Shown piece after piece: positions 7,397 through 56,145 of a stretch of DNA of 64,000 nt. Position 1 is the first letter of the stretch; the number at the start of each line of letters is the position of its first letter. The notes under the pieces are model-generated. The model saw only the letters and a list, made by a program, of their open reading frames with translations. It searched no databases and was not told the DNA's origin. The translations under genes were made by a program, and so were the position numbers. The stretch is from Dictyostelium discoideum. Its lineage: Eukaryota. Location: contig CM000151.3 in the NCBI GenBank assembly GCA_000004695.1, positions 4,704,001 through 4,768,000 of the forward strand, given 5' to 3'.

Positions 7397-8813
7397 TTTT
7401 TTTTTTTTTTTTATAAACACTATTTTTATTGTTGTTGTTGTTGCTGTTGAAATGAATAAAAAAATAAAAAAAAAATCATTTTATAGATCTCCCTTTATGG
7501 AAATGGAAATTTTTGTTTTTTGTTTTGCCACTGACACTGACACCATATGGTTTTTTTATTTGGATTTTTTTTTTAATTTTTATTTTTATTTTTATTTCAA
7601 AAAAAAAAAAAATTTCAAAAAAATAAAAAAATGATTTGTCCCATAAAAAAGTGATCAAAACTTTATTTATATATCAAAATTTGTTTTAAATTTATTCTTT
7701 ACTGAAAGTCCTGCGTATCCCATTTGAGTACCATGTTGTTGTTTGTCATCATCAATATGCCCTCGACGCAGAGAGATTAAATGAACCTTTTTGCTATACT
7801 TATTTTCTCGAAATTCGTTGTTGATTTATAAGTGCGTCCTGGTTCTTACAACAATTAAATATTAAAATAATTTAAATGAAAAAAAAAAAAAAACATAAAT
7901 AATAAGTATTTATAGAGTTGGTGAAAAGTAATTTATGCGGAGCTGGTCCTTTTTTATTTTCTGTGCGACTTTCCTTATAAAAAAATCACCAAAAGCCTCA
8001 GTGACCTTGGTTGAGGGAGCAGTGTTTAAATAAAAAATAAAAGTAAAAAAAAAAAAAAAAGAGTTGACATGTGCCTCATAAAATTACTTTTCACCTAATG
8101 CTGAAATTTTTTTATCCAACCAACCATAATCTTGGTCAGACTTCGAATAAACAATCTTGGTTAGAAATATCAAAAAAAAATAAATAAATAAAAAAATAAA
8201 ATCGTAAAAGAAATTATATTTTTAAAATTATTTGTTTTTAATTTTTATTTATTAATTATTTATTAATTTTTAATTTTTTTTTTTTTTTTTTTTGATACTA
8301 TTTTTTTTTAAAAAAAAAAAAAAAAGATATTATTTCTTAACAGTTTTAAAAAATTAGGAATTTGTGTGAGCGGTTTGGGAAAAAAGCATAACACATCTCG
8401 GTGCTTTTAAGAAATTTAATATCTTTATTGGAAATTTTTTATTTTTATTTTTTTTTTTCACTAATCGATTGCAGATTTTTTGGGTTAAAATTTTACCGAT
8501 GGAATTTTATTTTTTTTTATTTTTTTTTTATTTTTTTTTTTATTTTTTTTTTTAATAATTCGACGCTTTTGATTTTTTAGTTTTCATCATACCCTCAACT
8601 GTGATCAACCTATGAATTTGGTCAGCGCTGATTTCTTAAAAAATAAAAAAAAAATAATAATAATCATAAAATCCAAAAAAAAAAAAAAAAAAAATCTAAC
8701 CAAATTTTTTTTTTTTTTTTTTTGGGAAATATAAATAGAACAATTTTTTTTTTTTTTTATTATTTTATTCATCACAATTAAATATAAATTTAAATATATA
8801 AATATAAATAAAA

Positions 8814-10056: not shown

Positions 10057-12839
10057 TTAAACTAATTGATCAGCATATATTGATTTACTATCAAAATCAT
10101 CAATACTATTGATTGGTGAAATTGATGGTTGTAATCTTGATTGTGGTGGAGGTAATGGAGGTGATGACATTGAATCAATTGATGAATGTAATATATTATC
10201 ATTTGATTGATTTATTGAATTACCATTCTTTGATTTCTTTGTAGGTTTATTCTTTTTAAAATTTTTCTTTATTCTATTTTTTAATAAAATTCTTGAAGTT
10301 TTACTATACAATTTAAATTTAATATTTAATACTAATCCAACAACTAAAATTACACCTATTACAATTATTGCTATTACCCAACCATTCTTTTCAATAAAAC
10401 CTTTTTGAACATTTTTCGAAATTTTAGAATTATTATTTTCACCACCAATACTATTATTATTATAATTATTATTATTATTATTTGAAAATAATAAATCATG
10501 ATTATATATTGTTAATTCCTTTCCACCACTTTTACCATTAATTATTACATTTACAAATAATAATTTATCAATTATTAAATTTGTTTGTTGTTCAACTAAA
10601 CAAGTTATACATGATGAATTTATAAATGAAATATTTGAACAATTATAATATCCAATTGAAATATAATCAATTTGTTTATAAAATTCATTTCCTGTAATTA
10701 TTACTAAACCAGTTGATTTTGAAATTGTAGTATTTAAAACTAATGGTGGGTAAAATTTAATTGAGATATTTTCATGTTTATTATTAAATACAACTTCCAA
10801 ATATTGATCATTTGGGCCATTAATATTCATTTGGCAAGAAATTGTTGAGAAATTTATAAATGTACAATTATAATCTAAATTATTGGTAACACAATGAAGG
10901 TGAGAATTTTCAATTGTTTCTTTTACAAAGTTTTTACCAATAATTAAAATTGAGCCACCTGTTGAATTAAAAATTGGATTTGTTTGAAAATAGTCAACAC
11001 TTGGTGAGATATCAACTTTTAATGGTACTGTGAATTCATTACAAACTTCAAGTTTAAATTCACTAGATCCATACTCTGGTTTCAATGGGAATGAAATTAA
11101 TGAATTTGTAAATTTGATTGATATATTTGCAACATTATCAACAATTATTGAATTTGAAAAAATAATCTTAATTTTACCACTTTTATATAAATCAATAAAA
11201 TCTTGATATTGACCAACACATTCAATCATTTGATTATTTCCAATTGAACAATTATTAACAATTGGTAAATTGTAATTAAATTCTGAATGAATTGTATCAT
11301 TACCAATTGATATCAAAAATCCATTTCTACCACACCCTTTTGGAATTGTAAATGAATATGTATGTTTTGAGAAATCAGTAGAGTTTTTTAAATCAATACC
11401 AGTGATTTTACTATTATCAGATTGTAGTGTAATTATTGGTGTTGAATTATAATTTAATGGATTTATATTATAAAGTGTGAAATTTACAATTTGACCATTT
11501 ACAGATGGAGATGCTGGATTTTGTATCGAATAAAATGGAGAGGTTATTTCAGCAATGTTTGATTTTAAACCATTTACAACTACATTTATTTTTGATTTTG
11601 TTATTTGATTTGGTTTAAATAAAATTGAAGTTTGATTTTCATTAACAAGAATTTTTAAATTAGTTTGTTGAACATCATCAATAAATATTTGAGTAGTTTC
11701 ATTTGTACCAAAGAAATTACCAGATAGTTTCACTTCACCTTGTATAATTATTATGTTTGTTATAATAGGTTGATCAAATGAGAATAGTAATTTATTTTCA
11801 TTTGAAATTGAATTAATGGTTAATTTGATAGGTAAATTAACTGAATCACCATTATTAATAATAGGATCAATTCTACAAATTAATTGTTGATTTATAAATG
11901 TTACATTTTTACAATCATATGTACCAATTTTAACAAGTATAGTCGAATTGGCTAGCAATGATGGTGGTGGAGATAGTCTTGAACCTGTTATTGTTATTAG
12001 ACCACCATACTTTTTTGAAACACTATTGGCACTGTTTAAAATTGGTTTATAATCAAATGAAACATGATTGGATCCTAAGCCACCAGATATTATATGCAAT
12101 GATACTGATTTACTATATGGTTGGATGTATGCTATTTCAAAAATTTCATGATCAATTAGAGTTATATTAGATTTATCAATTTTGATACCCTCTATGAAAA
12201 TTGTTACATAATCTATAATGTTACAAAAGTTTGATCCATTTGCAATTATTTTAGTATCACTTGATGAAACACTTGAAATGTTTGGTTTTTGATGATTAAA
12301 TGTATAGTTGAAATTATTTGGCCAAGTGAATGTTCTAGGACCACAACCTCCTTTATAATCAAGAGTTAAGTTTGTAATATCAATTGTTGAAGATTCAAGA
12401 TCACCAATAATTGGCACCTTTGTTGAAGGAAGGATAGTAAATTTTGTAATACCAAAAACTAAATAATATCCTTGAATATTAACATAACCACCTTTAGTAG
12501 GTGGTTTAAATTCACCATCTATTATTGGTTGTGGATAATAATCTTTCCACAAAAATGAATTACATTCAGATGCTCCGTTTGTACTTGTAATACAATTTAA
12601 AATTTGACCTTTAAATTTCTTAACTATTGTTTCATTAACAGAACCAACACAAGTTCTAATAACTGTATTATTTGTACAAGAAAATGGTAAATCTACATCT
12701 GTAAATTCCCATTTTGAAAAATAATTACTATTTTTATCAAATATATAAGTTATTGAATCTTTTGTAAAATTTGATCCTTTTTATAAAAATAAAAAACTAA
12801 CATTATTAATTTTTTTGTTTATTTTTATTATTATTTTCC

Positions 12840-14569: not shown

Positions 14570-16100
<1,531 letters not shown>

Positions 16101-17819: not shown

Positions 17820-19270
<1,451 letters not shown>

Positions 19271-19515: not shown

Positions 19516-20640
19516 ATGGAATGTGGAGATGTTCAAGCTTTAGTAATCGATAATGGTTCTAGTATAAGTAAAGCCGGTTTTGCGGGTGATGATGCTCCAC
19601 GTGCTGTTTTCCCATCAATTGTTGGTCGTCAAAGATATAGGGATGTTATGGTTGGTATGGGTCAAAAGGATTCATATGTAGGTGATGAGGCTCAATCAAA
19701 AAGAGGTATCTTAAATCTCAAATATCCAATTGAACGTGGTATCATAACCAATTGGGATGATATGGAAAAGATCTGGCATCATACTTTCTACAATGAACTA
19801 CGTGTTGCACCAGAGGAGCATCCAATACATTTAACCCTATCTCCATCAAGTTCAAAAGCAAACAGAGAAAAGATGACTCAAATCATGTTTGAAACTTTCA
19901 GTAATCCAGCAATGTACATATCAATTCAATCAGCTTTATCATTATATGCATCTGGTCTTACCACTGGTATTGTCATTGATTCAGGTGATGGTGTTTCCCA
20001 CACTGTACCAATCCTTGAAGGTCATTCAATAAACCATGCTATCTCACGTTTGGATTTGGCTGGTAATGATCTCACTGATTATTTGGGTAAATTATTATCT
20101 GGACGTGGCTATCCATTCATATCAATTGACGAAACAGAAATAGTCAGAGATATCAAAGAAAAACTATCATATATCACATTAGATTTCCAAAATGAAATTA
20201 AAATTGTTTCATCAGCATTAGAGAAATCATATGAATTACCAGATGGTAAAGTGATTTCAATTGGTAATGAACTTTTTCGTTGTCCAGAAGCTCTCTTCCA
20301 ACCATCATTCTTAGGTATGGAATCAGCTGGTATTCACGAAACCACATACAATTCAATTATGAAATGTGATGTCGATATTCGTAAAGACCTATATGATAAT
20401 GTTGTATTATCAGGTGGTACAACTATGTTCCCAGGTATTGCTGATCGTATGAACAAAGAATTAACTGCATTAGCACCATCAACAATGAAAATCAAAATCA
20501 TTGCACCACCAGAACGTAAATACTCAGTTTGGATTGGTGGATCAATGTTATCATCGCTCTCAACTTTCCAACAAATGTGGATTTCCAAAGAAGAATATGA
20601 CGAATCTGGTCCATCAATTGTTCACAGAAAATGTTTCTAA
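19516..20640 (+). CDS. Divergent actin paralogue (374 aa) in tandem with the preceding actin; intact ORF but many substitutions at conserved positions. It is either a fast-evolving actin variant or a pseudogene with a retained ORF.
   Basis: [26 protein letters not shown]... differs from canonical actin in the first phosphate-binding loop (GSGMCK to GSSISK), has a 2-aa deletion ([15 protein letters not shown] to [14 protein letters not shown]) and carries many subdomain-4 changes. The last ~400 nt and the 3' UTR (20641..20700, tgatgaaattgtttctcaca) remain nearly identical to the neighbouring actin. Confidence 0.75.
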
Positions 20641-33490: not shown

Positions 33491-34615
33491 ATGAAGGGTT
33501 CAATATTCTTACTCTTTATTTTCCAAATATTTAAATTTTCATCAAGTTATTCACATTATCCACATAAAAACCAGTTTTCATTTTATTCACCTACAAGTTT
33601 ATCATTTACATCTTCAAATTTCTCAAGTGGTAGTGGTAGTGGTAGTGGTGGTGCTAGTGGTAGTGGTGGTGGTGGTAATATTGGTAATAAATACAATAAT
33701 GAAAATAACAAAATTAATGAAGAGATTATTATTTCATGTATATATGATGACTATTTAAATTTTCAATACCAAGATTTAAGTAAGATCAATGGTATTTTAA
33801 TTAATGGTTTCAATAAAAATAGTACGAGTGATATATTTGTTAAAAATGTAAACTCTCAATATTATGATCAAAGTGATAGTAGCAATAATTTTCATTATTT
33901 TGATCAAGAGAATAATAATTTATCTCCACAATCTCAATTAAATAAGGAATGTCCATTCAATTTAAAGAATCCAATTCCAACATTTTCAAATTCAAGATAT
34001 TCAATCAAAATTGATAAATCATTTGATGTTTCTGATGAAATCACTTTAGTTTCAAAAAATAATTTCTTAAATTCAAATTCTGTAAGTTGTTTTCATTTTT
34101 ATAAAATTTTAAAAATATAATCTTCAATATTAATTTTTTTTTTTTTTTTTTTTTTTTAAAAAAGATTTCAAAATTAAAATTTAAAGTTTATATTCCAAAT
34201 AAAATTACCAATAAAATTAAAATACAACTTATAAATAGTTTAACTGGAAATAATGGTCCTAAAATACCATTGTTAAACACAATTGAAAATAATTATTTAA
34301 AACCATTCCCATGCCATCAATGGTTAGATGCATTTATTTTATTTAACGAAACCAATTATTATAATAATAATAATAATAATAATTATCCAATTTTTTACAA
34401 TGGTCTTAAAATTACAAGTAGTAATAGATCCCTTGATAACACTTGGATTGACGAAGTTTATATTGATGAAATTAAATTAATTTCAAACAATAATAAACAC
34501 AATAGTAATAAAAATGATAGAAAAAGAAATATTGATCAAACCAATGAAATTTATGATAAAATAAATATCAATAATAATAATTATAATATTAGAAAATTAT
34601 TTAGTATCTTAGATG

Positions 34616-34673
<58 letters not shown>

Positions 34674-35297
34674 AATTATTAATAGTTATAATACAATTAA
34701 TTCAAGGGCTGATATTGCATTAGGTGGTAATAGTGATGATCAAAGTGACATTTCATACTCTATCATTTGTAATAAACATATGAATGAATTGAATAATGAA
34801 ATCAAATGGAGATTTGAAGAAGGATCATCTAGTAGTTTAGTTGAAACAGCTAATGGGAATTTAATATTGGAAGGTTCAATTCATAGTATTTCAAAACATC
34901 AAGCTGATTATAATTTTAATTGTAAAACCAATTGGAAAATTAGAATTGAATTTTCACCAATTATCGATGATTATCAATATAATGGCAGAATGGAATTGGC
35001 ATCATTTGCATATACTAAAAATGGTGGTCCAATTGATACACTTTATTGGAAATATTATAAATTTGTAAATGGTTATTTAAGTGGTTTAGATTGTAATCAA
35101 GGTAAATTAATTCAAATTAATAATAATAATAATCATAATGAAAATAATAATGGAATTTTACAAATTGGTATTGGCGCAAATAATAAAAATGGTAGATTTG
35201 GTTTATCAGTATATGGATTACAGTTATCAATTGATAATGACAATACTTTTAATATTAATGTTGATTTAAATAACCAAAATAACCATTTATCTAATAA

Positions 35298-35328
<31 letters not shown>

Positions 35329-38300
35329 AATGAAGTTTTAGAATGTAATTGTCCAATTGGATTTATTTGTTTAAATGATGGAACATGTAAATTAAATTTT
35401 CAAAATGATGTTGATGAAGAATATATAGATTGTTCAACATTACAATGTCCATCAGGGTATGAATGTAAACTTGATAAGAATTCAAAGACTAGAGGATGTA
35501 TTGAACAGATTGGCCCACAAAATCTTAATCAAACTAATAAATGTTTGGGTAATTTAAAGTGTCCAGATGGATTTGGTTGCTGGCATAATTCAACTGATAA
35601 TACTTTAAATTGTAAACAATATAATAATCATAAATTTGATACAAATGTCATCGATAGTGAAAAACATAGACATCATTGTAGAAATGTTGATTGTCCAAAG
35701 AGTCATTACTGTAAAATTCAAAGAAATGGTTTACCAAGATGTTTCCCAAAAGTTAACCCATGTGAATTTGTAAGTTGTGATTGTAATCTAGAGTGTAGAG
35801 TAACATCATGTGGTGATGCTAAATGTTTTGCACCAGAGGAATGTTGTGAAGGTAAAGCTTGTATGGACACTAGAAATTATAGATGCGTAAAGATTAATGG
35901 CGTTGATGAATGTGTTAGAATCCCACCTTTGAAACCATTACCACCCCCACCCATTTTCTATGAAACACCATCACCAACATCTGCACCACCCACTGAAACA
36001 CCATCGCCAACTGACACACCAACTGATAAACCAACTATACCACCAACACCAACACCAACACCATCCAAAGAAATTACAGATTGTAGTCAAGTAATTTGTC
36101 AAGTTAATTATACATGTTTTGATATACAAAAAGGTGTTGGACCATTTACGCCAGTTTGTATACCCATTAATTATTGTGACGAGTATACCACTAGATTCGA
36201 TTTACAAGGTTATGTTTGGTTGGATGACAATGAAAATGGCTATAGAGATGTCAATGAAAATGGTGTTGAAACTGAACCAATTGGCGTAGAGGGTATCTTT
36301 TGTAATTTGGTATTCAGTACCGATCATTCACCCGCAAGAAATCATTATGGTGATATCATACCAGTATCAGTTACAAATTTGGATGGTTTCTTTAGTTTCA
36401 ATGATGTTGTACCAGGTTCTTATGTTATCGATTTCTATAATATCAAAGGTTATCATTGGACTCTACCATTCAATAGATACTTTAAGAATAGTAATTGGGT
36501 TAATAGTGATGGTACTTCTTTACCATTTGAATTACCACAATATAATGTTTCAAATCCAAATTTCATAATTTCACCACAATCCAATTTAATTTCAAAATCT
36601 ATAACTCTACCACAACCAATATTTTCAACTAATGCTATAGTCACTGTTAATAATGATGGTTTCGATGAGTTAGGTAGCAGTGGCAGTGGTAGTAGTGGTA
36701 ATAGTGGTAGTAGTGGTAGTGGTGGTAGTAGTAATGATAGCACAGAATCTCAATGGTCATCAGAATCAGAATCATCAGCATCTCTAATTACACCATCAAA
36801 TATCTGTCAAACTCATTTCACTGTTTCAAATATACTTGCTGGTCTTATTGTTGGTCCACAACCAACTCCATCCACTGATATACCAACAACAACAACAACA
36901 ACAACCTCTACATCAACAACAGGTCCAATTGAACCAACATCAACACCAACGCCAATAGTTGATGTTATTGATTATTATGGTATTGGTAAACAGGTATTCA
37001 TCGATTTCAATAATAATGGTATATTTGATAGTGGTATTGATAGACCAGTATCGGGTGTTGAAATTACATTAATTCAAAAAGGTTTCAGAGCATACAATCA
37101 TAAGGGTGATAAAGTACCAACAATAAAAACCGATACCAATGGTTTTTACTTTTTCGATGCTCTTGCACCTGGTGTATATAGAGTTTCATTGAATAATTTA
37201 CCACCACATGGTTATACCAATTCATTGTTAAACAAATATCCAATTGATACAAGTTCAAATACAAGTGCTCAATTCATAGTTTATTATCGTGTGAAAGATA
37301 ATATAAAATATAATGCTTCCGATTATCCATTGGCATCAAGTAATATTAAACCAAAGCTTGCACAATATATTAATTCATATGTCGATTTTGCTTTAGTACC
37401 TATTAATCCACCGATTGCAGTTGGTGATACCGTTTACTTTGATTCAAATCAAAATGGTAAACAAGATCCATTTGAAAAAGGTATCAAAGGTATTCAAGTC
37501 ACTCTAAAAGATTTAAAGAATGGTTATGAATATAAAACCATCACAGATGATAATGGTAAATATTTATTCGATCAAATGATTGAAAGTGATAATTATCAAT
37601 TACAATTCTCTGTACCAAATGGATTCCAAGTTGTCGATCATCCAAATTCAATAAAGAATGGAGTTTACACAATGGATACATTTCAATTATCTTCAAGTAC
37701 CACTCCACCAACTAATGCTTCATTAACAAAGGGTGTAGTTGGTAACAAGAAAGTTAATTCCGCTTATTTCGACGATTCAAAAGATGTACCATTGTATTTC
37801 GAAAATTCTTATGCAATTGGCCATCAAGCTTTTATCGATACAAATTTAGATGGATTGTATAAAAATGACCTTGATAAACCATTACCTGGCGTTGAAGTTA
37901 CTTTGGTTAATGCCGCTTCACCATCAACTCCAATTACAAATATCTTAGGTCAAATTGTTAGAACTGTTATCACTGATGCAAAGGGTTTTTATCAATTTGA
38001 TTTCTTAAAGCCAAATAACTACATTGTTCAATTTAAACCACCCACTGGGTTCAAAGTTACAAAGCCACCACCAAACACTGCAACCTATCCAGAATTAGGT
38101 TCATTAATAGATACAAAATCATTTAAAACACCATCATTAGATATTGTTACCTTATCGAAACCAAAGAATATAGAATACATTCGTCTTAATGTTCAAGCTT
38201 CAAATATTTTCGAAAGTGTAAATGCAGGTTTCTATATTCCACCAACATTTTCAATTGGTCATAGAGTTTGGTATGATACAAATGCTGATGGTATTATGGA

Positions 38301-41300
38301 TCCAACTGAAGAGGGTGTACCTGGTATTGTAGTTTCACTATATACTGATAAGAGTGAACCCGCTTATGATATCAATGATAATCTCATCATTCCAACGATA
38401 ACAGACTCTAAAGGTTTTTATTTATTAACCAAAATTCCAACAGGTAATTACTTCATTTCATTTAGTAATCTACCAAAAGGTTACACTTGGACCAAACAAA
38501 ATGTTCTCACACTTGATTCAGTTGGTTATGATTCACGTCCAAATGTTTTCACAGGATATACCTCTTTGTTTGAAATGTCAACAACAAGTCAATTGGTTAG
38601 AACTACTGTTCCTTCTGACAACTCACCAGATTTCTATATAAATCCAATCGAAAATGCTGGTATCATCAAGGGTAATAGAGGTCTGGTTATTAAATACGCA
38701 GTTGGTAGATACATATTTTATGACGATAATAGAAATGGAATTTTAGATGATTATGAAAACGGTGTTGGAGGTGTCATTGTTCAAATATTCACTTCAGCTG
38801 GTAAACCTGCTCTTGATTTTAATGGCAAGGTTATTCCACCCGCTGTAACCGATTCAACAGGTCGTTATATCATTGATAATTTATCACAAGGCGATTATAT
38901 CATTCAATTTTCAAATATTCCAAATGGTTATAACTTTGAAAATTTACCACCACCTTATCCAAATTATCTCAATGGTAGAATTGGTACATTTACTCTTTCG
39001 CCATCATCCTCTATCAATACAACAAATGTTATTAAAAAATTCAATCCTCCAAAACCTAATGGAGGTAAAAAAGTTTCATTCAGTCATAGTATCAATCAAA
39101 AATCTAGGAAATTATTAAATGATGGAATAATTGGACAAGACACATCTGTTGATTTATCAAATGTTATAGCTGGAGGTAGTACTGTCGATGGTGTTGACAT
39201 TCCAAATGTTATAGCTGGTGGTAGTACTGTCGATGGTGGTACTAGTGTTAATGGTGGTACTGGTAGTACTTCAACAACAACAGTTTCATCATCACCATCA
39301 TCATCATCTGATATTGGTAGTAGTAGTGATATCAGTAGTGAAGTATCATCATCGTTATCATCATCGCCATCATCATCAGAACAACCATCAGAGCAATCAT
39401 CATCATCATCAGAACAACCACCAGAAGATTCAATGGAAGAATATCCAGTTCATTATTATGAACCTGTATTTGAGACAACACCAGGTAGTTATCCATTGGA
39501 TAGTATTAAAGCAGAAAGAACAGATTTAACAAGAAATGCAGCAATTGTAAGAGCAGCACCATATGCATTTGGTCAAAAAGTATTTTTCATTGATAATAAT
39601 GGCAATGAAGTTGGTGTACCAGATGTAACGGTAACATTAGTTAATTCAAATGGTTTCCCAGTGACAAGTATTAATGGTGTAAATATGGTACCAACAAAGA
39701 CAGATTCAAAGGGTTCATACCGTTTCAATTTATTACGTGCTGGTTCTTATCATGTTGAATTTTCAAATATTCCAATTGGTTTTTCATTCTTTGACCCATT
39801 ATCAGGTAAAATCGATTTCAATCTTGTAAACACTGATCCAAATGTACGTGGTGCAATACCAGCCGATAAAGTACCAAAAGCAACCTATTATGATCAACAT
39901 GTTAATCTTCAATTGAATCCACCATTTATCTTTGCAATTGGTACCCGTGTTTGGAATGATACAAATAAGAATGGTCTCTATGAAATTGCTGAACCTGTTT
40001 TCCCAAATATTACAGTTAGACTATTTGATCAAAATTTACAACCAGTACTAGATAATTTTAACATTCAAGTGGAGCCAACTGTAACCAATGCATTGGGTCA
40101 ATATTATTTCGATAATTTACATAGTGGTTCATATATTGTCAAATTCGAAGTACCAACTCGTTATTATTTCGCACCACAATTGAAATCAATTGAAAATTCC
40201 AATGGAGTTGGTGTCAATTCAAAACCAAATAGTCAAGGTTATACAAGTGTTATTTCACTCTCACCAGATTCATTGGTTGAAGCTCCACCATCAGATTTTA
40301 ATTTCACCATTAGATCTTTAGTAGGTAATTTCCATATTGATGCTGGTTTAATTTATGATGAAAATTATGTCAAGTCATATGCGGTTGGTAGATATGTATT
40401 CTATGATCTCAATGATAATGGTATTATGGATAGTGGTGAAATGGGTGTACCAAATGTTACCGTTGAAATATTTAATCCAACTGGTCAACAAGTTTACAAT
40501 ATCAATGAATTACTAATTGGATCAACAACCACAGATTCCAATGGTTATTACCTTTTCGATGAAATTCAACCTGGTAGTTATATCATAAAGTTTAGTAATA
40601 TACCAAATGATTTAATGTTTGGAAATAAAACAAAACCAAATTCAAATACTGGCCTAACTGAACCATTCTTATTATTCCCAAAAGAACCTGCTATCAGACT
40701 TGTAAATAGTACCACTGATGTTGGTGTAAAAGCTCAAGCAGTCGATTTCACAGAGAATGCAGGTTTAATTAAAAAGGTAACATTTGCGATTGGTCATTAT
40801 GTTTGGTATGATATAAATTCAAATGGTCTTCAAGATTATCCAAATGAACCGCCAGCATATGGAGTTCCACTTAGATTACTTAAATGCAATTTGATTGGTA
40901 TAACTTATGATACTTGTTTCACAGTGATAAATACAACTACAACCGATCAAAATGGTCTTTACTATTTTGATAATTTATCACCCGGTTTATATAAACTATT
41001 ATTTATGAATCAACAAGGCATTTTCGAAACTACAACTCCTTTCGCTGGTAATGGTACAAATGATAGTAAAGCAATCGATGAAGCTATCACTGGAATTAGA
41101 TTATCAATATATACAAAGAATGTAACGAAAACAGATTCAAATCTTGACCCAATGATAAAGGCACCCTTCATTGATAGAACATTGAATGTTGGTATTCTAA
41201 AACCACCAATGTTTAGTATTGGTCATAAAGTTTGGTATGATACCAATAAAAATGGTAAAATCGATCTAAAAGAACAACCAGCACCAAATGTAACCATTTA

Positions 41301-44300
41301 TCTCAAACGTGCAAAAGAGGTCAACTTTGAATATTCCTTTGATCTCTATGGTAAACCTATGATCGCTAAAACAAATGAAACAGGTGATTATTGGATCAAT
41401 AATATTCCACCAGGTCTTTACATTGCAAAATTCTTTCCACCAAATGATACAAGATTCACCATTCAAATGAATGATAATAGTGCAAATGTTTTCGGTTCTT
41501 CATATGCAATCTATTTGTTCTATAAAGTTCCAGGTATTCATCCATACAATTTAAAAGTTGATATTGGTGCGGTGAATGCAAGTTATGTTTACTCAAAAGT
41601 TAATGCAGGTTTATTAAAAGGTTTAGTTGATATTCGTCTTTATGCAGTTAGTGGTTATGTTTACAACGATACCAATTCCAATGGTATTAGAGATCCCGGT
41701 GAAAATGGTGTTAATGGTACAATTGTAACATTATTGGATATAAATGGTAATACAATGGTTGATGCTGATTCTTATCCAATTAATTCATATACAACGGGTC
41801 CTGATGGATACTATAAATTCGATGATTTCTCATTTGGTAAATATATTATAACATTTAGCGGTGTACCAGATTTAATCTATCAATTCTATAAACCAGATGA
41901 TCAACAACATTTAAATCATTCCACACTTTCAAATATAACAATTTGGTCACCAGATAATCCAATGGTTGTAAATGCAACACTCAGTGATCATGTCAACGCT
42001 CAATATATTCTTAGAGAACAAAATAAAGGTATTATTAGAGTGATCACTTATGCAATTGGAGGTAAGGTTATACCAGATTTTAAAAACACAACATATAAGG
42101 ATAGTGGTTACGCGGGTGGTGCTGTTATAGTTCAATTATACCGTAACAATTCAATAGCAACAGATCTTCGTGGTAATCCAATACCATCGGTATTGACCAA
42201 TGTATTGACTGGTGAATATCTTTTCGATAATGTACCAATCTTAGAGGGTTATCAAGTAATGTTTTCAAGTCCACCACCAGGTTGGATTTTTGAAAAGTAT
42301 AGAATCACTCAAACCCCATTCATTCAACTTGATCTTTTACCATCATTCAATTTACCAAAATCAAATCCAAAATTAATAGATAAGAAACTTTATCCAAATA
42401 TCTTTGCAACCTATGGTGTATTGGATCAAGATACTATTATCTCACCCACTCTTTTTGGAATTGGTAAGAATACATTCATTGATGTTGAAAATAGTGGTCT
42501 CGAATCAATACCTTTAATTCCATTAGGGGGTGTAGTTGTAACACTTTACAATAGTGTATTCGAAAGAGTATTTGATGCATTTGGTAATTTGGTTAAAGAG
42601 AAAACCACGGGTGAAGATGGTGAATATTCTTTTGAAGACCTTTACTCTGGTCAATATATTGTTCATTTTGGTTTAGTTGAAGGTTATTCATTCACTCAAC
42701 AGTATGCTGGAACAGATCCTGAAATTGATTCGAATGCAAGTCCTGTAGATGGTTATTCAGAAATCATTCAATTAGATTCAATGAATAATGAATTGATTTT
42801 AATACCATTGGAATCTAGAAACAACACATTATTCTGTGATCCAACAATTGATGGTGGTTATGTTTCACTCTCACCTCAAGGTTTCATTAGTGGTATGACA
42901 TATATTGATTATAATGCTGATGGTGTATTCACACCAAATTCACGTGATAAACCATATCCAAATATTACGGTTTCAATCTACACTGGTGATGATAGTAGAT
43001 TAGTTGCAACCGCTCAAACTGATAAGAAAGGTTTTTACTCATTCTCACATTTATTCATATCCACTCAATATCAAGTTGTTTTCTCAGGTATTCCTCAAGG
43101 TTATTATACATCATTCCAAGCTGATACTGTACAATTCCCAATCGCAACAAAGACTGGTGTAAATTTAGGTATCATTAAACCATTGGAATATTGTCAAGAT
43201 GATATTAAAATAATTACAACTTGTTTTGTTCGTGGTGATTCAAATGATGATTTACCAGCTGTCGTTCAATTCCCTTATACTGCTTATTCCGATTTGAATG
43301 GTGATAATGGACAAAAAGTTGATCTAGTAACAATGAGTGAAACTAAAACAGTTTATGGTCTTGGATATGATCGTAAAGAGAATACAATCTATCTTTCGCC
43401 ATATAAAAAGCAATTTTCTAGTTTAAATTCAAAAACTTCATCAACTATCTTTAAGAAATCATTATCAACAGGTGCCCTATCAGCTTATGTAAATTTAGCA
43501 ACAGTTTTAGGTTTTGACTTTTTAGCTCCAAATGGTAAAGTTTATGGTGATTCTCAAACCTATCGTGTATTATTTGGTGATTTGGATATTATTGGTGATT
43601 ATATTTGGGTTACAAATCTTTATAGAAACATTGTAGTTAAAATACCATTACGTCAAACTCCAACTAGAGAAAACATTAAATTAGTAAACATCACTCATAA
43701 TTGTGGTCCAGATCCATTTAGAATCTTTGGTTTAGGTTATAATGGTTCCAATGTATTCGTTGGTGGTGTTTGTGAAGGTTCAGTTTCGAAGGATATAAGA
43801 AATGTAATTGGTGTAATTAAAGTGATTAGCTCTGATGAAACTTCATTCTCTGATGTTTTAACAATTCCAATGAATTATCCACGTGGTCGTTTACAAACTA
43901 GAATCATGTTTTTAAATGATATGACACCCATTTTCTCATCGGTTCAAAATTCAACATGGCAAGTTTGGAATGATACAGTGGGTAGTTTTAAACCTCAACC
44001 ACAGATAACCGATATTACATTCATTGGCGATGGTGGTAATATGGTAATATCAATGAAAGATCGTGAAGCTGATAGTCAAAGTGTTACGCCTGCAGGTGAT
44101 ATATTAATGGCATGTAAAGATTCAAATGGTGTTTATCAATTGGAGAGTGCTGGTGTTTGTGGTGGGTTAATTGGTACAAATCCAATTTCAATTGGTACAA
44201 TGATTGAACAAGGACCAGGTGGTGGTGAATTTTTCGATGACAATTTTAGTGATCGTGATTGGCAACATGATGAAACCACTTGGGGTTCTTCATATTATTT

Positions 44301-44865
44301 ACCAGGTAGTGGTGAAGTCATTGGTGGAGCATACGATCTTTTATCAACCAATGAAGCAATTGTAAAACATTGGTCAGTCTATAATGGTCGTGTTTTATAT
44401 GGTTTCATTTTAATTCATGGTGCTGGTTTAGATTATGTTTTCAATAAAGTTAATGGTTTAGGTGATATGGATGCAAATTGTAGATTACCAAATACTTATA
44501 TTGGCAATTACGTTTGGTATGATCTAAATAAAAATGGTCTTCAAGATCCAAATGAAAAAGGAATGGCAAATATTACTGTTCAATTATTTAGTGCCGCTAA
44601 TTCAACATTCATTAATTCAACTCTAACCGATTCCTCTGGTAATTACAATTTCCAAGTCATTTCAGAGTTTAAATATAGAGTTCATTTCGTTGCTCCAAAA
44701 GGTTTCACTTATTCTCCTATCGTTACTGTTAGTAGTGATCCTAATGATAAAAGAGATTTGGAAAAAATCAATAGTTTACCTGATTCAAAAGGTGACGCAT
44801 ATTTCTTTGCTAATGGTAATGGTGAAAATACTCAAGATATTGATTGTGGTTTTATAAGAATTTAA
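33491..44865 (+). CDS. Giant secreted/cell-surface protein (~3763 aa), colossin-like. It has a signal peptide, a Cys-rich EGF-like region, a Pro/Thr linker and ~16 tandem SdrD-B/CnaB-type domains. Exons 33491..34081 and 34165..44865.
   Basis: Exon 1 (MKGSIFLLFIFQIFKFSSS...) ends at a TCT|GTAAGT donor in phase 0. The acceptor AAAAAG at 34163 joins in frame to the 3531-aa ORF. The repeating unit is ~110 aa: IGxxVWxDxNxNGxxDxxExGVxGVxVxL...(T/S)DxxGxYxFxxLxxGxYxVxFxxPxGY (e.g. IGHRVWYDTNADGIMDPTEEGVPGIVVSLY, VGRYVFYDLNDNGIMDSGEMGVPNVTVEIF, IGNYVWYDLNKNGLQDPNEKGMANITVQLF). This is the SdrD B-like fold common in bacterial adhesins, and Dictyostelium colossins are built from it (established knowledge). 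Confidence 0.8.
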
Positions 44866-49555: not shown

Positions 49556-50212
49556 GTTCGTACACTGTAAAAAAAAAAAAAACTTCACACAAGACCCAAA
49601 GGTCTAAAAAAATGATTAATAGTTTGGGCCAGATCATATTATGTTGAAATTAAAGATATTTTTATCTTTTTTTTTTTTTTTTTTTTACAGTGTACGAAAT
49701 TGGTAGAAAAAAATCACTTTTTAAATTTCCCAAAAACCAAAAAAAAAAAAATAAAAAAAAAATAAAATAATTGATCAAGATATTTTTATCTTTTTTTTAT
49801 TTTTGTTATTATGATCAAAAATTAATTTTATTTTTTTCTTTTTTATTTTTTTTTAGTTTTTTGAGAAATTCGAGCAGTGGGAACGCTTTTCTATCTGTTG
49901 TCCTAAAACCCTAAGTTTCAAAGAATTTTGATTTTAATTTCCTTTTATTTTTTATTTTTCCAATATTAGAAACTTAATATTGGAAAAATAAAAAATAAAA
50001 AATAAAAAAATATTATATGCTCTGGTCAAATTTTTCAAAAAACTAAAAAAAAAACTAAAAAAAAAATAAAAAAAAAATAAAATCAATTTTTGGTCATACA
50101 AAATTAAAAATTAAAAACACTTTTTTTTTTTTTTTTTTTCGTTTCACAATTTCTTTTCTTTAAAAAAAAGGTAATAAAAATAAATAAAGAATTTAATATA
50201 TATTAATTAAAA

Positions 50213-50847
50213 ATGTCACTGATATTGGATATAAATAAAAATTCAACTGAAAATAAAAACAATCTTGAATCAACAGGAATATTATTTCAAAAAGTTTGGG
50301 AGAATGCAGTGATAAAAAATAAAATTTTATCATTTTTAAAAGTAAAGACAACAACATCTTTGTTATTACCAAATTTTAGAGGTAACAAGATTAAATTATC
50401 AGTAGAAGGATTTATGCCAAAAGATGATATGTCAAATAAAACACAAGTATTAAAAGAAAATAAATATTCCAAATTCGATGAAATGGTTAATGTATCCAAG
50501 ATGATCAGTTATGGCAATAAAGAATTATTAAAATACAAAGTATCAATAAATTATGAAGACTTACATTTCTCAAATAATGATATACATATCATACTTCAAA
50601 ATTTTAAAGATGAAAATTACGATTATCAATTCTATCAAGATCTTTTTAATAATTATCCATTTTATTTCACTTTAGACGAAACAAAAAAGAATAAACTATT
50701 AAATAAAATAATTGTAAACGATAATTTATTAGCATTAAAAGTTCTCATCAATCAACTCAACCCAATCATTACATACAATAAATTTATAATGGCAGTTATA
50801 AAAGGATCTATAGATATTGTAAATTATCTTTCAAATTCAACTACTAC

Positions 50848-50909
<62 letters not shown>

Positions 50910-51760
50910 TTAAATTAAATGAAGATGATATTATTAATGTATTCAATTTTATTTTTTTCGATGAAACTGAAGATATGGATTTTGATCCTGATTTAGAGGA
51001 GGAAGATTATTTTCCTCCTTTAGTGGAAACAAAATACCCAATAATGGATTATAGATTTTTTCCATTGGATAATATAGAGATTGTCTTTTTAAAATCGATA
51101 CGCGATAAAAAAAATATGATTCAATGTTTAATGAATTTAGGTGTAAAGCTTCCAACAAAGATTAAAGAACCAATTAAATATTTATTTGATTTATCCATGT
51201 GTGAAGATCTTTGTTTTTTCCCTAATATTACATTAAAATGGCTAATTGAAATATATGAATGTATTCATTATGTATCACCATTGGTTTCTAATGAATCATT
51301 ATCAGAGGCAAATAAAAAGCTTTCAGATTTATTATATTCAAAAGAAAAGTTTGAATCAATAAAGAAATTATTCAGTGAAATCGAATTAAATTCAACTTTA
51401 AACCGTTTAGATTCAAGAGAAGAAATCAAACAAATGTATAAAATACTCACAATGGTTTCTCATATTCATCCTATGGATTACCAAATTAGATATGAAGAAA
51501 TAAACAATGGATTCAAAAGTAATTTTAAACTTATTTTTAAATATAGTGACCCAACATATCAAAAATTATTTATTGAAAATTTTATTAGCTATATAGAAAA
51601 TAATGATTTTTGTGATGAAAGCTGTAATGAAACTTATTTCTTGGTCAATTCACTTATCGATAATGATAAAGTAGAATATTTAAAAATGGCTTTAAATTCA
51701 TTCGATTATTCAGATTCGTATTCGGATTCAGATGTTATTATCAATATTAAATCATTTTAA
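50213..51760 (+). CDS. Hypothetical protein, 515 aa, poly-Asn tract; N-terminal ILFQKVWENAVIKNKILSFL motif paralogous to the 45133 gene.
   Basis: ATG at 50213 (aaaaATGtca); ORF continuous to TAA at 51758. Its 3' end overlaps the next ORF in another frame. Confidence 0.55.
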
Positions 51761-52751
51761 AACTAAATATCCAGAAGATTATTATAGTCAATGTAGTAAA
51801 TTAGATTTCAAGGAAAATCAAAAACTATTTTCAAATGATTTCATTTGTAACAACTATCAAGATTTTAAAAAGAATATATTAAAATGTAATAAAGATAACC
51901 CATTAAATTTCTTTCCAGTTTCCAAAAATTTGAAATTAAATCAATTCGTTGCAATTTTAGAATCAACACCACCTCAACAAAAGTATTCATGTTTATTAAA
52001 TCCAGAAATTTTGGCATGGATCTATGAGAATAGAGAATGTGATTTAAAATCTGGTAGATGTATACAACCAAATTTTGTAACATTATTCAGATATTTATTT
52101 TACACCAACCAATTTTCAAAAGCATTAAATGATATTGATTATTTTAATAATCCTGGTGACCTTGATTATTTTAATTTTAAAAATAATCATAATGATGAAA
52201 AAATCCATTCTATTGAAGAAATAATAAAAGCCATGAAATCAAAAAAAGAATTCAAACAACAACAAATTGATGAATTTAATACAATTTTTAAAATAACACT
52301 ATTATTCATAATTCCAGGTTTAAAAAAACTTATAAAATCAATAATCAAATCTAATAATTTTAATTATTTAGAAATACTTTACAACTACATTAATAACACC
52401 AGTAAAGAAAAGAAATTTGAAAATCTATTGGAAGAATTAAAAGATTTAATATTTCAGTATATTAAAAAGTACAATAAAATCAGTTGTTTAAAATTTTTAT
52501 TGAAATTAGATCAAGATAATAAGTCATTCTTTTCTGAAGATTTGTTAATATTTTTTTACAAAGAAATAAATACAAATTATTCAATAAATCAAGAAATTTC
52601 AAATATTTTAAAAATTTATTTCAATTTTAACATTGAAGATAAAATAAAAGAAGAAGATGAAAAAGAAGAAGAAGAAGAAGAAGAAGAAAAAGAAGAAGAA
52701 GAAGAAGAAGAAGAAGAAGAAGAAGAAGAAGAAGAAGAAGAAGAAGAAGAA

Positions 52752-52783
<32 letters not shown>

Positions 52784-52814
52784 CGATGATGATGACGAGA
52801 TGAAGGAGGATTAA
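51732..52814 (+). CDS. Hypothetical protein, 360 aa, with a C-terminal poly-Glu/Asp tail. This may be the 3' part of the 50213 gene, separated from it by a frameshift.
   Basis: True ATG at 51732 inside ...tcagATGttatta.... (GAA)n at ~52650..52790 encodes ~50 Glu. The 29-bp overlap with the upstream ORF in a different frame suggests either a frameshift (a sequencing error or pseudogenisation) or two closely packed genes. Confidence 0.45.
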
Positions 52815-53027
52815 AAAGAGATGACAAAGTCTAAAAAGAAGATTAATTTTATTTAAAAAGTATTGTTTTTAACATCTCAGTGAATAAGCTATAACCTCAA
52901 TTAATCAATGTTCAATAATCCAGTTTCATTTTTAAAAAAATAAAAAAAATAAAATTAATATTAGTTCGAAATTATCTATATATGCCATATGGCAGATGAT
53001 ATTGTTGTGGTGAGTTTTCACATTAAA

Positions 53028-53030
<3 letters not shown>
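52790..53030. repeat. Direct repeat copy 1 (~230 bp, 3' end and 3' flank of the 51732 gene)
   Basis: gaaggaggattaaaaagagatgacaaagtctaaaaagaagattaa...aagctataacctcaattaatcaatgttcaataatccagtttc...ttaatattagttcgaaattatc...atgccatat. ~85% identical to 53455..53700. Confidence 0.8.
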
Positions 53031-53059
<29 letters not shown>

Positions 53060-53098
53060 TTTTAAAAACAATTTATTAAACCAAAACAATAAAAAAAC

Positions 53099-53309
53099 TA
53101 TTTATAAACAGTTATTTGATTGTTTTAAGATTAAATAACAATTTACTTTAATAAACCATATATTAAACAAATAATCACTTGTTGAGTTTGCAAATAAAAA
53201 AAACAAAAAATTGAAAAATTAAAAAAAAAAAAAAAAAAAAAAAAATAGACCAAACTTGAAAGTAAATTGTTATTTAATTTTTAAACAATCAAATAACTGT
53301 TTAAAAATA
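53099..53309. repeat. Long imperfect palindrome (arms ~54 bp, spacer ~100 bp) lying between the two direct repeats
   Basis: 53099 ctatttataaacagttatttgattgttttaagattaaataacaatttactttaa vs 53256 ttgaaagtaaattgttatttaatttttaaacaatcaaataactgtttaaaaatag (reverse-complement match with ~4 mismatches). Confidence 0.8.
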
Positions 53310-53454
53310 GTTTTTATCTTGGAAAAATGGTTTGTGATTGTTTTTGGATTTAATGCTTCAAAAAAAAAAATAATAAAAAAAAAACAATCAAAAAATGAAT
53401 ATGGGTAACTATGAAAAAAATATTTTGATAAAAAAAAAAAAAGAAAAAGAAATG

Positions 53455-53700
53455 GAGAAGGAGGATTAAAGAGAGATGACAAAGCCTACAAAGAAGATTA
53501 ATATAAGTTATTTAAAAAGTATTATTTTTTAACATATCAATGAATAAGCTATAACCTCAATTAATCAATGTTAAATAATCCAGTTTCTTTCTTTAAAAAA
53601 AATAAAAAAAATAAAAAAAATAAAATTAATATTAGTTCAAAATAATCATTGTATGCCATATATCTATGGTAGATAATATTATTCATAACTTTTTTTTTAA
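53455..53700. repeat. Direct repeat copy 2 (degenerate duplicate of the gene 3' end, including an ...EKEMEKED* pseudo-terminus)
   Basis: gagaaggaggattaaagagagatgacaaagcctacaaagaagattaa...aagctataacctcaattaatcaatgttaaataatccagtttc...ttaatattagttcaaaataatc...atgccatat. Confidence 0.8.
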
Positions 53701-53825
53701 ATTATCTATTTTAATTTTAGCAGATTCTTTTTCTTAAAAAAAAAAATAAATAAATAAAAATTAACATATGGATAAGTTTCTTTTTATAAAAAATAATAAC
53801 AAATTATTATTTATTTTTTTATTTT

Positions 53826-56145
53826 TTAATTTTCATTTTCATCTTCATCAGAAAAATCAACATAATCATCTAAAAATCCTGGTGCTGGTTGTTGAGTACC
53901 TTGAGTAGCTGCTAATTGTCGTTCTCTTTGAATGGATGGATCATTCCATGGTAATAAAGAATGAAGGAAATTTAAAACTGGATTGGCAGGACCAGTGTAA
54001 TCTGGATTCTCTTGTAATAAAGGTTCTAAAGGTTGTTGTTGTTGATGTTGTAAGTTTTGTTGTTGTTGTTGTTGTAATTGTCTTAATTGTTGTTGGACTC
54101 TTCTTTGTTGTTGTTGATTTCTTTGATGAATTTGGAAACCTTGACCAATACCACCTCTTCTAAGATGTTGTGGTGGTGCTTGATTTGGATCACGTTGTGG
54201 TAGGATATCTCTGAAACCTTCAGCATGCATTGCTTCGATAATGTCTGGTGTTAATCTATTGATAACGTCAGAGTATTCTGATAGAACTAAATGATCGAAG
54301 ACCTCTTGATTCACAGTTTCATACTCTGCTTTGATTGAATCACTCAATTGTTTTACCATTGGATGTTTGGCGGCTACTTTATCTAATACAATGATAACAT
54401 TTGATTTTAACCAATCTAAAATTTCAGGAGTTTGCCAACATTGATAATTTCTCTCGACAAACAAAGTCACCAAATGATCGATACGTTTCTCCAATGGGTC
54501 ATCCTTAAAGAATGGATCATTTTCAAGTGTTATTATTTTACCATTCTTTGGAATTGAGAAATTAGTTTTCAATTTCTCCAACAATGGTTGAAGCACCATT
54601 GGGAATGATATTAAGGCCTTTTGTAAGAGTATATCACTTGATTCTTCAACACTTGATGATTTCGATGATGATGTTGATGTTGATGTTGATGTTGTTGTTG
54701 TTGATTTCTCTCTCTCCAAATGATACATTGCCAAAGCAGCAGAATAACAAAAGTTTGGTAACAATGATAGATCGCCTTGATTGGTTGGTGTGATAGTTTT
54801 TAACTTTGTGAATAAATCTACCAAGAATCTATACTGTTTGGATCTAATGGAGTAGTAATCGATGATTAAACGTACATACAATGGATCAGAGTAATCCCAA
54901 GTTAATAAAATTTTACAAAGTTCTAATGCGGTTCTATGACATGCCCTTCTACCAATGATTTGAATAAATCTAAAGATTGCCAAGAAACATGATTTATTTT
55001 GGTCATGTCTATATTCGAATCTACAATTACCATTGAGTGGATTAAAGAGATGATGGAATACATTCTCAAATGCAAATACTGCCATCTCTACGAAATCACC
55101 CGCTTTTGAATAATCTGCAGTTTGTAAACAAACTTGACCCAACTGTAATAATGAATCAATATGATATGGATGATATCTAATAATTTCAACTAAACTCATT
55201 GGGTCATGAGTTGTTAATGCTAAATAAAATTCTTCTTGAATATTTGAATATGTTTGACCCCATTTAATTTTAAAATAATTTATACCATCTAAAGATTGTT
55301 GTTGTGATTTTAATTTTGGTGATACTGTATTGGTTGTAGTAGTAGTTGTAGTTGTGGTTGTTGTTGCATTTGTTGGTGATGATGGTACTTTATCATCATT
55401 ACATATTTCCATTACCATAAATCCTCCCATGACATCAGGCCATTCAGGTTTTGGTTGAACAAATATATAGTTTTTCTTTTTAAAATGATGTACACTCTTT
55501 TTCTTTTGACCTTTAATATCTGAACTCTTACAACCAAATAATTTTTTCAATTCGTTATCTGGGTTTAAATTAACTGTATTAATTTTAAATAATTCTCTAA
55601 ATTCTTTATCTTTAATCTCAATTCTATATAATATTATTTATTTTGTTAAATACATAATAATATAAAATTAGTAAAATATTATTATTAAAAAAAAAGTAAA
55701 AAAAAAAAAAAAAAACATACTCTGATAATATTATTGGTGGCGATGATTTTTCAATCTCATTTAATTCAAGTTCATCTTTTTCTTGTTGTTGTTGTTTTTT
55801 CTTTTGTTGTTGTTTTTTCTTTGCTTGTTTTTTTTTGGATGCTTGTTGTTGTTGCTTTTGTTTTTGTTGTTTTGAAGATAATTGTTCTTTAGCTTGAGGT
55901 TTCTCTTTTTCAATTTCTTCTTCTTCTTCTTCTTCTTCTGATTCTTCTGATTCAGAATCTTTTTTATCTTCATTTTCATCTTGGTCACTTTTGTCGTCAT
56001 CTTCGTCTGATAAGTTTAACATTGAAAATTTTGGTTTTACACTATTAACAACAACAACAACTTTTTTTTCACTTCCCTCATCCGAACTACTATTTACATG
56101 TTGTACGTTAATATGTTGTTTCTTTTTTAATGCTTTTGTTGACAT
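53826..56145 (-). CDS. TCF25/Nulp1 family protein (Rqc1-like ribosome quality-control factor homologue); exons 56145..55721 and 55623..53826 (~740 aa).
   Basis: Exon 1 (MSTKALKKKQHINVQH...acidic/K-rich...) ends at an ATCAGA|GTATGT donor in phase 2. The acceptor TATATAG at 55624 gives ...LNPDNELKKLFGCKSS..., which matches LNPDTELKRYFGARAI of human TCF25 as recalled. The family signature HPYHIDSLLQLGQVCLQTADYSKAGDFVEMAVFAFE and the FLAIFRFIQIIGRRACHRTALELCKILL block are present. Confidence 0.8.

Follow-up and report, generated by a model that had tools for sequence, protein, structure and literature searches.

Likely tandem-array contraction scar with a lineage-specific inverted repeat on chr2 of Dictyostelium discoideum AX4

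A convergent gap that holds a direct repeat and an inverted repeat

We analyzed a 64,000-nucleotide stretch of the Dictyostelium discoideum AX4 genome (chr2:4,704,001-4,768,000; 25% G+C), hereafter called the window. Three ORFs within the window exactly match AX4 proteins – major actin, Actin-17 (DDB_G0274131), and DDB_G0274219 – and the published position of DDB_G0274221 (chr2:4,737,491-4,748,865) corresponds to window positions 33491-44865, an offset of 4,704,000. Exact-product look-ups for window ORFs of 360 aa, 837 aa, and 70 aa (antisense) returned no match. The feature considered here (~chr2:4,756,790-4,757,700) occupies a 1-kb gap that separates convergent genes (Table 1).

The gene upstream of the gap is read as two ORFs (50213-51760, 515 aa, and 51732-52814, 360 aa), the second of which ends in a poly-E tail (...DDDDDEMKED-stop) with its stop codon at 52812-52814. 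Pfam identified no domain above cut-off in this gene family, the acidic tail giving sub-threshold matches only, and family homologs (P0001-P0003, P0058, and P0059) are confined to Dictyostelium discoideum-group assemblies. On the other side of the gap lies a convergent TCF25/Nulp1 homolog. Protein searches with this gene returned matches from other species only, and it provides an orthology anchor for the terminal flank across strains.

A preliminary description of the locus, made from the letters alone, had reported that the 3' end of the upstream gene recurs as a direct repeat at ~85% identity, that the second copy ends in a decayed pseudo-terminus, and that an inverted repeat with an A-rich spacer lies between the copies. 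All three observations hold. The two copies (DR1 and DR2) are each ~260 bp long with a period of 655-660 bp. Within-window BLAST aligned them over 160 bp at 90.6% identity (E=2e-54), and their substitution-only identity from the stop codon to ATGCCATAT is 92.1% (15 mismatches, 3 indels); counting gaps and tails gives a mean column identity of ~85%. Both copies start with GAAGGAGGATTAA (52802 in copy 1, 53457 in copy 2), and the pseudo-terminus, ...KKKKEKEMEKED-stop, ends at 53467-53469. Two antisense ORFs, 52627-52827(-) and 53270-53482(-), both start with MSSLFNPPS. As the preliminary description had stated, these ORFs are artefacts of the duplication – they are the reverse complement of the repeat start and nothing more.

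The inverted repeat spans ~235 bp in total, with arms of 63 nt that are 92% complementary and ~107-109 nt between them; there are 3 mismatches among the 57 nt of its core (53093-53149). No other long, non-homopolymeric inverted repeat of at least 90% identity occurs within the 64-kb window. Folding, a check that the preliminary description had proposed, showed that the palindrome folds far better than its shuffles, both as DNA (-46.2 kcal/mol, z -8.2) and as RNA (239 nt; -63.6 kcal/mol, -0.27 kcal/mol/nt, z -12.7), with 0 of 200 shuffles folding as well in either case.

The same arrangement is found in a second assembly, L004 (GCA_054883475.1), which is 99.9% identical to the window across 23.5 kb. 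Over window positions 52600-53900 (1301 bp), L004 has the same order and the same junctions; the two sequences differ by 2 mismatches and by 3 nt in the length of one T-run. The N-terminus of its TCF25 protein has four amino-acid differences from AX4 within the first 28 residues.

Table 1. Features in and around the convergent gap, in window coordinates.
Feature	Positions	Strand	Basis or remark
Sole full AX4 copy of the domain-less, lineage-specific gene family	50213..52814	+	two ORFs
Junction of 152-nt frameshifting deletion	51727..51728	+	alignment; TCAGA microhomology
DR1, 3' flank of the surviving gene	52802..53067 (end approximate)	+	diverged tail; T26 run at 53028-53053
30-nt motif CTCAATTAATCAATGTNCAANAATCNAGTT	52896..52925	+	near-invariant across flank copies
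Inverted repeat, left arm	53087..53149	.	repeat search, folding
A-rich spacer (loop) with A25 run	53150..53258	.	no significant homolog in sister loci
Inverted repeat, right arm	53259..53321	.	outer ~14 nt (53308-53321) overlap start of segment X
Segment X (tagtttttatcttgg...aatgaatatgggta; sister start tttttatctgg)	53308..53406	+	alignment with sister strains
In-frame relic, last 21 codons (NYEKNILIKKKKEKEMEKED-stop) of a putative lost terminal-type paralog	53407..53469	+	deletion junction ~53406/53407
DR2, putative orphan 3' flank of the lost terminal paralog	53457..53718	+	abuts TCF25 3' region
Second copy of the 30-nt motif, 1 mismatch	53556..53585	+	sequence comparison
Convergent downstream gene, TCF25/Nulp1 homolog	53826..56145	-	two exons, 97-nt intron; PF04910 homologs

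Tandem arrays in sister strains and the origin of the second repeat copy

We observed that the gene, which is single-copy in the AX4 window, is present as intact 923-937-aa versions arranged in tandem arrays in three diverged assemblies, all labelled D. discoideum: five tandem units in GCA_054859385.1 (L001 and L022), at least three in GCA_054859355.1 (L005), and two in GCA_054859205.1 (L002). These sister loci are syntenic with the AX4 locus, share ~92-96% nucleotide identity with it, and are bordered by the DDB_G0274219 ortholog and the convergent TCF25/Nulp1 homolog. The conserved 3' flank that constitutes the direct repeat is present after four of the five L001/L022 units and after the terminal L002 unit.

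Units within the arrays carry one of two types of C-terminus. A long poly-E tract (...DDDEMKED-stop) closes the interior units, whereas the terminal unit adjoining TCF25 has a short tail – the K-rich EYYDKKKKEKKEDDDHDDDEMKKED-stop in L001 (10975-11063) and KKLKEEYEKREQEEQDDDEMKED-stop in L002. Both types coexist in L001 and in L002, and the surviving AX4 gene has the interior, poly-E type. The AX4 gene reads as two overlapping ORFs because of a 152-nt frameshifting deletion, which is common to AX4 and L004 and missing from all units of L001, L002, and L005. The whole gene family appears to be decaying in the AX4 lineage.

Within the flank, a 30-nt motif is near-invariant even in two flank copies that are only ~72% identical overall, and a role in the 3' UTR or in termination is probable. 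RNAalifold applied to seven copies of the flank core returned 0 pairs, and the sole Rfam match to the flank was a sub-threshold one to sR52 inside a GAA repeat (E 0.18). The motif also recurs within an isolated 77-bp island of L002.

Several observations connect DR2 to a terminal unit that AX4 no longer has. The in-frame relic upstream of DR2, NYEKNILIKKKKEKEMEKED-stop, matches the L001 terminal tail EYYDKKKKEKKEDDDHDDDEMKKED-stop and is unlike the poly-E tail of the upstream AX4 gene. Over 273 bp, DR2 shares 91.6% identity with the terminal flank of L001 (11043-11312), and its tail is nearly base-for-base the same as the L001 and L002 terminal tails, whereas the DR1 tail has diverged. Its position beside TCF25 is that of the terminal unit in other strains. 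DR1, for its part, is 94.7% identical to the interior and terminal flanks of L001 and only 92.1% identical to DR2, though the mismatch counts behind this kinship are low (10 against 15 and 13 against 15 in ~190 sites) and gene conversion may have blurred them, so that the argument rests mainly on tail type and position. The relic type, the DR2 tail, the adjacency to TCF25, and the identities therefore indicate that DR1 and DR2 descend from different units of an ancestral array. From these sequence comparisons we conclude that AX4 has lost the body of a putative terminal gene.

This finding bears on the preliminary description, which had read the layout as a duplication target, a hairpin element, and a second duplication target – the footprint of an insertion. 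Target-site duplications made by transposons are typically 2-15 bp long and are each other's closest relatives. The direct repeats here are ~260 bp long, far beyond such sizes; DR1 is closer to copies in sister strains than it is to DR2; and DR2 bears the tail of the other paralog. The footprint reading thus fails, the two copies being the paralogous flanks of different array units.

The arrangement of the segments that follow the flank in sister strains suggests how the terminal gene was lost. Segment X has counterparts at L001 3985-4080, L001 11310-11385, and L002 11430-11530. Unit C and the terminal unit of L001, like the terminal unit of L002, have a flank tail that runs directly into X, with a further segment, Y, behind it; the flank-X comparison consists of these three sister copies and leaves out the terminal junction of the L005 genome, the closest diverged strain. 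In AX4, X is joined straight to the 21-codon relic (at ~53406/53407), which points to a non-homologous deletion with one breakpoint at the end of X and the other close to the 3' end of the terminal gene. Behind DR2, AX4 has neither X nor Y, which by the same sequence comparison is a putative second deletion.

The locus resembles known relics of tandem-array contraction in that a paralogous 3' flank and a few terminal codons survive beside a copy of intact length, copy number ranges from 1 to 5 among close lineages, and the junctions are non-homologous with short microhomology. Full tandem paralogs with the same flank occur at the orthologous locus, and the orphan flank keeps a remnant of the lost gene that is distinct from the surviving gene. 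It differs from such relics in that the AX4 deletion is no clean unequal crossover, its junction lying between X and the last 21 codons, and in that the surviving AX4 copy is itself frameshifted.

Origin of the inverted repeat

The hairpin is found in AX4 and L004 and is missing at all three comparable flank-X junctions of the sister strains. Because flank tail and X are contiguous in those three copies, the hairpin is a lineage-specific addition. Searches of the 64-kb window and of ~195 kb of Dictyostelium DNA (the genome is 34 Mb) yielded no second copy. A 20-mer from the hairpin arm gave 16 chance matches among metagenome and bacterial/archaeal contigs, with exact cores of 20-24 nt that do not extend (the longest match is 31 nt at 93.5% identity). 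A scan of the boundaries at 53075-53100 for a target-site duplication returned only 2-3-nt A/T matches. Neither the arms nor the loop have a homolog above shuffled or real-sequence background in the sister spacers or the flank tail. The inverted repeat cannot be extended significantly outward into X, as 40% of control AT-rich segments score equally, and only the outer ~14 nt of the right arm, which are X sequence, are demonstrably ancestral.

Template-switch or fold-back inverted duplications produce palindromes or quasipalindromes spontaneously during replication or break repair. We identified a case of this kind in the orthologous spacer of a sister strain: L001 11459-11546 is a perfect 88-bp palindrome (44+44 nt), and the orthologous site in L002 has one arm only. 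Compared with L002, the second L001 arm is an inserted exact reverse complement, so that the palindrome is demonstrably a de novo inverted duplication. Other, unrelated young inverted repeats lie at L001 4690-4819, L001 8171-8355, and L005 14906-15035. The presence of several unrelated young inverted repeats in sister spacers points to a local process and away from a single family of elements. Since no target-site duplication and, in the sequence searched, no second copy of the AX4 hairpin was found, and since sister spacers carry palindromes of their own, a local inverted duplication is its most likely origin, though unproven. Hairpin-mediated template switching, which the preliminary description had offered for the whole layout, does not hold for the direct repeats, which are paralogous flanks, and is plausible – the leading guess – for the palindrome alone.

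Like template-switch duplications, of which the L001 spacer has a textbook example, the AX4 hairpin is an inverted repeat of high identity that consists of local, non-repetitive sequence and lies in an AT-rich intergenic region. It differs in that its arms are already ~5-8% diverged, its spacer is 107 nt long, and neither arm is traceable as ancestral. As no sister homolog of arm or loop was found, the signature of template switching in which one arm is ancestral is not seen in the AX4 hairpin.

An alternative for the inverted repeat, which we consider unlikely, is the insertion of a small non-autonomous transposon of the foldback or MITE-like kind at the border of the first flank and X, the direct repeats being pre-existing and unrelated. 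The anatomy fits: terminal inverted repeats of ~60 nt and an AT-rich non-coding interior within ~235 bp. So does the distribution, with presence in AX4 and L004 and absence at the three sister flank-X junctions, and it is the whole unit, rather than one arm, that is novel relative to the sister strains. Thug-S, a non-autonomous Dictyostelium element that yields miRNAs (PMC4894637, PMC6161686), belongs among the elements to which the hairpin may be compared; MITEs and foldback elements are likewise short, non-coding, provided with long terminal inverted repeats, and present or absent by lineage. The AX4 hairpin differs from them: its boundaries show trivial 2-3-nt A/T matches in place of a target-site duplication, and the sequence searched contains no other copy (the comparison with thug-S is by description only). 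A transposon is further disfavored by the outer end of the right arm, where ~14 nt belong to the ancestral flanking sequence, and by the several unrelated young inverted repeats in sister spacers. Captured DNA, whether foreign or filler, or an element of low copy number may also have been the source; insertion of arms and loop as a whole unit would fit a mobile or captured fragment at least as naturally as it fits a local duplication.

Proposed history, competing readings, and significance

We favor, with a probability of about 0.72, the reading that a tandem gene array collapsed in the AX4 lineage and left this layout as its scar, the hairpin most likely being a local inverted duplication. 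By comparison with the sister strains, the ancestor of the D. discoideum group would have carried two or more tandem units of a gene that evolves fast and has no known domain, the interior units poly-E in type and the terminal unit by TCF25 short and K-rich, with a ~260-bp 3' flank behind each. In a first step, a non-homologous deletion would have run from the end of X behind the first flank to 21 codons before the terminal stop, removing ~3-4 kb if sister-strain unit lengths are a guide. Its product would have had the order gene 1, flank 1, X, 21-codon relic, flank 2, TCF25. A second deletion would then have taken X and Y behind flank 2. The 152-nt frameshifting deletion in the surviving gene would be a further event, and the hairpin would have been added between the flank 1 tail and X by fold-back or by template switching as the DNA was replicated or a break was repaired.

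An improbable alternative is that AX4 never had a second gene copy at this position, and that the direct repeat is instead a local tandem duplication, in the AX4 lineage, of the gene 3' end, flank, and X, or a product of hairpin-mediated template switching. A single duplication of ~655 bp would yield the observed order of flank, X, relic, and flank, and the regular 655-660 bp period agrees with it. However, the relic codons match the K-rich terminal type of L001 rather than the AX4 poly-E type, DR1 has closer relatives than DR2, L001 and L002 each contain both types of unit, and the tail of DR2, but not that of DR1, matches sister terminal tails. The same order would also result from a one-unit ancestor by tandem duplication of the last ~20 codons, flank, and X; this version is disfavored only by the relic tail, which is of the terminal type and unlike that of the upstream gene.

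Two related readings give the hairpin a role. One, which we regard as very unlikely, would make it a newborn lineage-specific hairpin-RNA or proto-miRNA gene in the array scar, or would make recurrent spacer palindromes, unrelated in sequence, fragile sites that drive copy-number change; the right arm of the AX4 hairpin ends ~85 bp from the major deletion junction. Narrower still, and likewise very unlikely, is the reading of the hairpin as a young transcribed hairpin-RNA or proto-miRNA locus in which the T26 run would serve as a T-rich promoter element and a 55-bp stem would be diced into small RNAs. In D. discoideum, up to 26 nt of T-rich sequence are reported to precede pri-miRNA start sites, and intergenic hairpins are the usual source of miRNAs (PMC6161686). 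The AX4 hairpin resembles the pri-miRNA hairpins of that study in being intergenic, in its favorable folding energy, and in its upstream T-run: the RNA fold is strong, the T26 run sits 34 nt upstream, and the location is the 1-kb gap between convergent genes. It differs from the reported loci, which are 100-180 nt, in being much longer, in its large loop (107 nt, which is atypical), and in not being conserved in sister lineages. In addition, the T-run is not followed by the G of the reported motif, and T-runs are ubiquitous in this genome. Rfam gave no match to the hairpin at the gathering threshold, nor a credible one at E<=1, and a tRNA scan found none. Six arm-derived 16-mer probes were absent from the supplements checked, which belong to two Dictyostelium miRNA papers. 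Table S1 of PMC6161686 does not place this locus among its 12 new loci (27 published loci overall), and the two chr2 loci of that table lie elsewhere on chr2; nor do the portions of PMC5295588 examined give an lncRNA at these coordinates. Nothing indicates a function for either the direct repeat or the hairpin.

That the layout is an artefact of assembling the AT-rich, repeat-rich reference, which the preliminary description had held likelier should the palindrome be unique in the genome and the repeats be absent from other strains or assemblies, is effectively refuted: homopolymer runs and repeats are prone to error, and a T-run does differ by 3 nt between the assemblies, but L004, an independent assembly that differs from the reference elsewhere, has both the repeats and the hairpin in identical order and with identical junctions.

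On the tandem-array reading, the feature is an ordinary tandem-array contraction scar plus a lineage-specific inverted repeat, and no new mechanism is needed to account for it. The odd 1-kb convergent gap in the AX4 reference is thereby explained as the decay of a lineage-specific gene family, of which AX4 has one frameshifted copy and an orphan 3' end, against 2-5 copies in other assemblies that bear the same species name. This explanation guards against annotating the MSSLFNPPS ORFs, the pseudo-terminus, or the hairpin as genes or mobile elements. The locus also provides a compact natural case of rapid copy-number turnover and of repeated de novo palindromes in an AT-rich genome, and as such is of modest interest for Dictyostelium genome evolution.

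Divergence among the assemblies and extent of the array unit

Across the syntenic region, the L001 and L022 sequences of GCA_054859385.1, L005 of GCA_054859355.1 and L002 of GCA_054859205.1 are just ~92–96% identical to the AX4 window, while GCA_054883475.1 (L004) reaches 99.9%. GCA_054859385.1 and GCA_054859355.1 are labelled Dictyostelium discoideum and GCA_054859205.1 D. cf. discoideum; such a divergence from AX4 seems high within one species.

We observed that the 3′ end of the convergent TCF25 homolog recurs as a 185-bp copy within the L001 array, behind unit C (one of its tandem gene units), with 95.7% identity to the window sequence. As read from sequence, this copy indicates that the original duplication unit took in part of TCF25. 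AX4 and L004 TCF25 differ at four residues (K4R, N18D, K27E and K28E), all within the first 28 – a cluster that contrasts with the 99.9% identity otherwise and points either to errors in the reference or to a hot spot at this place.

Coordinates of features in the AX4 window and in the array-bearing assemblies
Feature	AX4 window	L001	L002	L005
Sole full AX4 family gene	50213-52814 (+)			
152-nt deletion junction	51727-51728			
GAA tract	52635-52790			
TCF25 3′ end and array copy	53737-53917	4173-4357		
TCF25 four-residue cluster	56060-56145			
Perfect palindrome		11459-11546		
Family-flank and spacer inverted repeats	49821-49877, 50022-50078	4690-4819, 8171-8355		14906-15035
30-nt motif CTCAATTAATCAATGTNCAANAATCNAGTT	52896-52925, 53556-53585	207, 3849, 7991, 11148	8176	
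Flank-core island			8150-8225	
Major actin gene	14776-15906 (-)			
Major actin gene	18018-19148 (+)			
Actin-17 gene	19516-20640 (+)			

Inverted repeats and a conserved flank motif

Between TCF25 and the 3′ flank of the last unit, L001 carries a perfect 88-bp palindrome whose 44-nt arms adjoin without a spacer. This is clearly a de novo inverted duplication, because the orthologous L002 site holds just one arm. Separate inverted repeats, laid out as T-run, arm, loop, arm and A-run, occur in the spacers between units of the family and in its 5′ flanks, and segments within these regions lie in opposite orientation in different units.

A 30-nt motif is near-invariant among the aligned copies of the 3′ flank, including two whose overall identity is just ~72%; no RNA structure is predicted for it. 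The flank core also occurs in L002 as an isolated 77-bp island (~86–91% identical to other copies) inside a 3-kb inter-unit spacer. Homology to the gene unit was not detectable in the sequence around this island, which is either a moved fragment or all that is left of a unit that has decayed.

The surviving AX4 gene and other window features

The window contains three clustered actin genes, two of which encode the same 376-aa major actin. The long GAA (poly-Glu) tract at the 3′ end of the family gene, where AX4 and L004 are separated by one substitution or more, gave the sole Rfam match (sR52), sub-threshold and spurious.

AX4 and L004 share a 152-nt frameshifting deletion in the family gene, with TCAGA microhomology at the junction, that is missing from every unit of the other three assemblies. 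The L004 annotation gives the gene an ad hoc 70-nt ‘intron’. With this deletion in its sole family copy, AX4 probably retains either a pseudogene or a gene rescued by such an ‘intron’.
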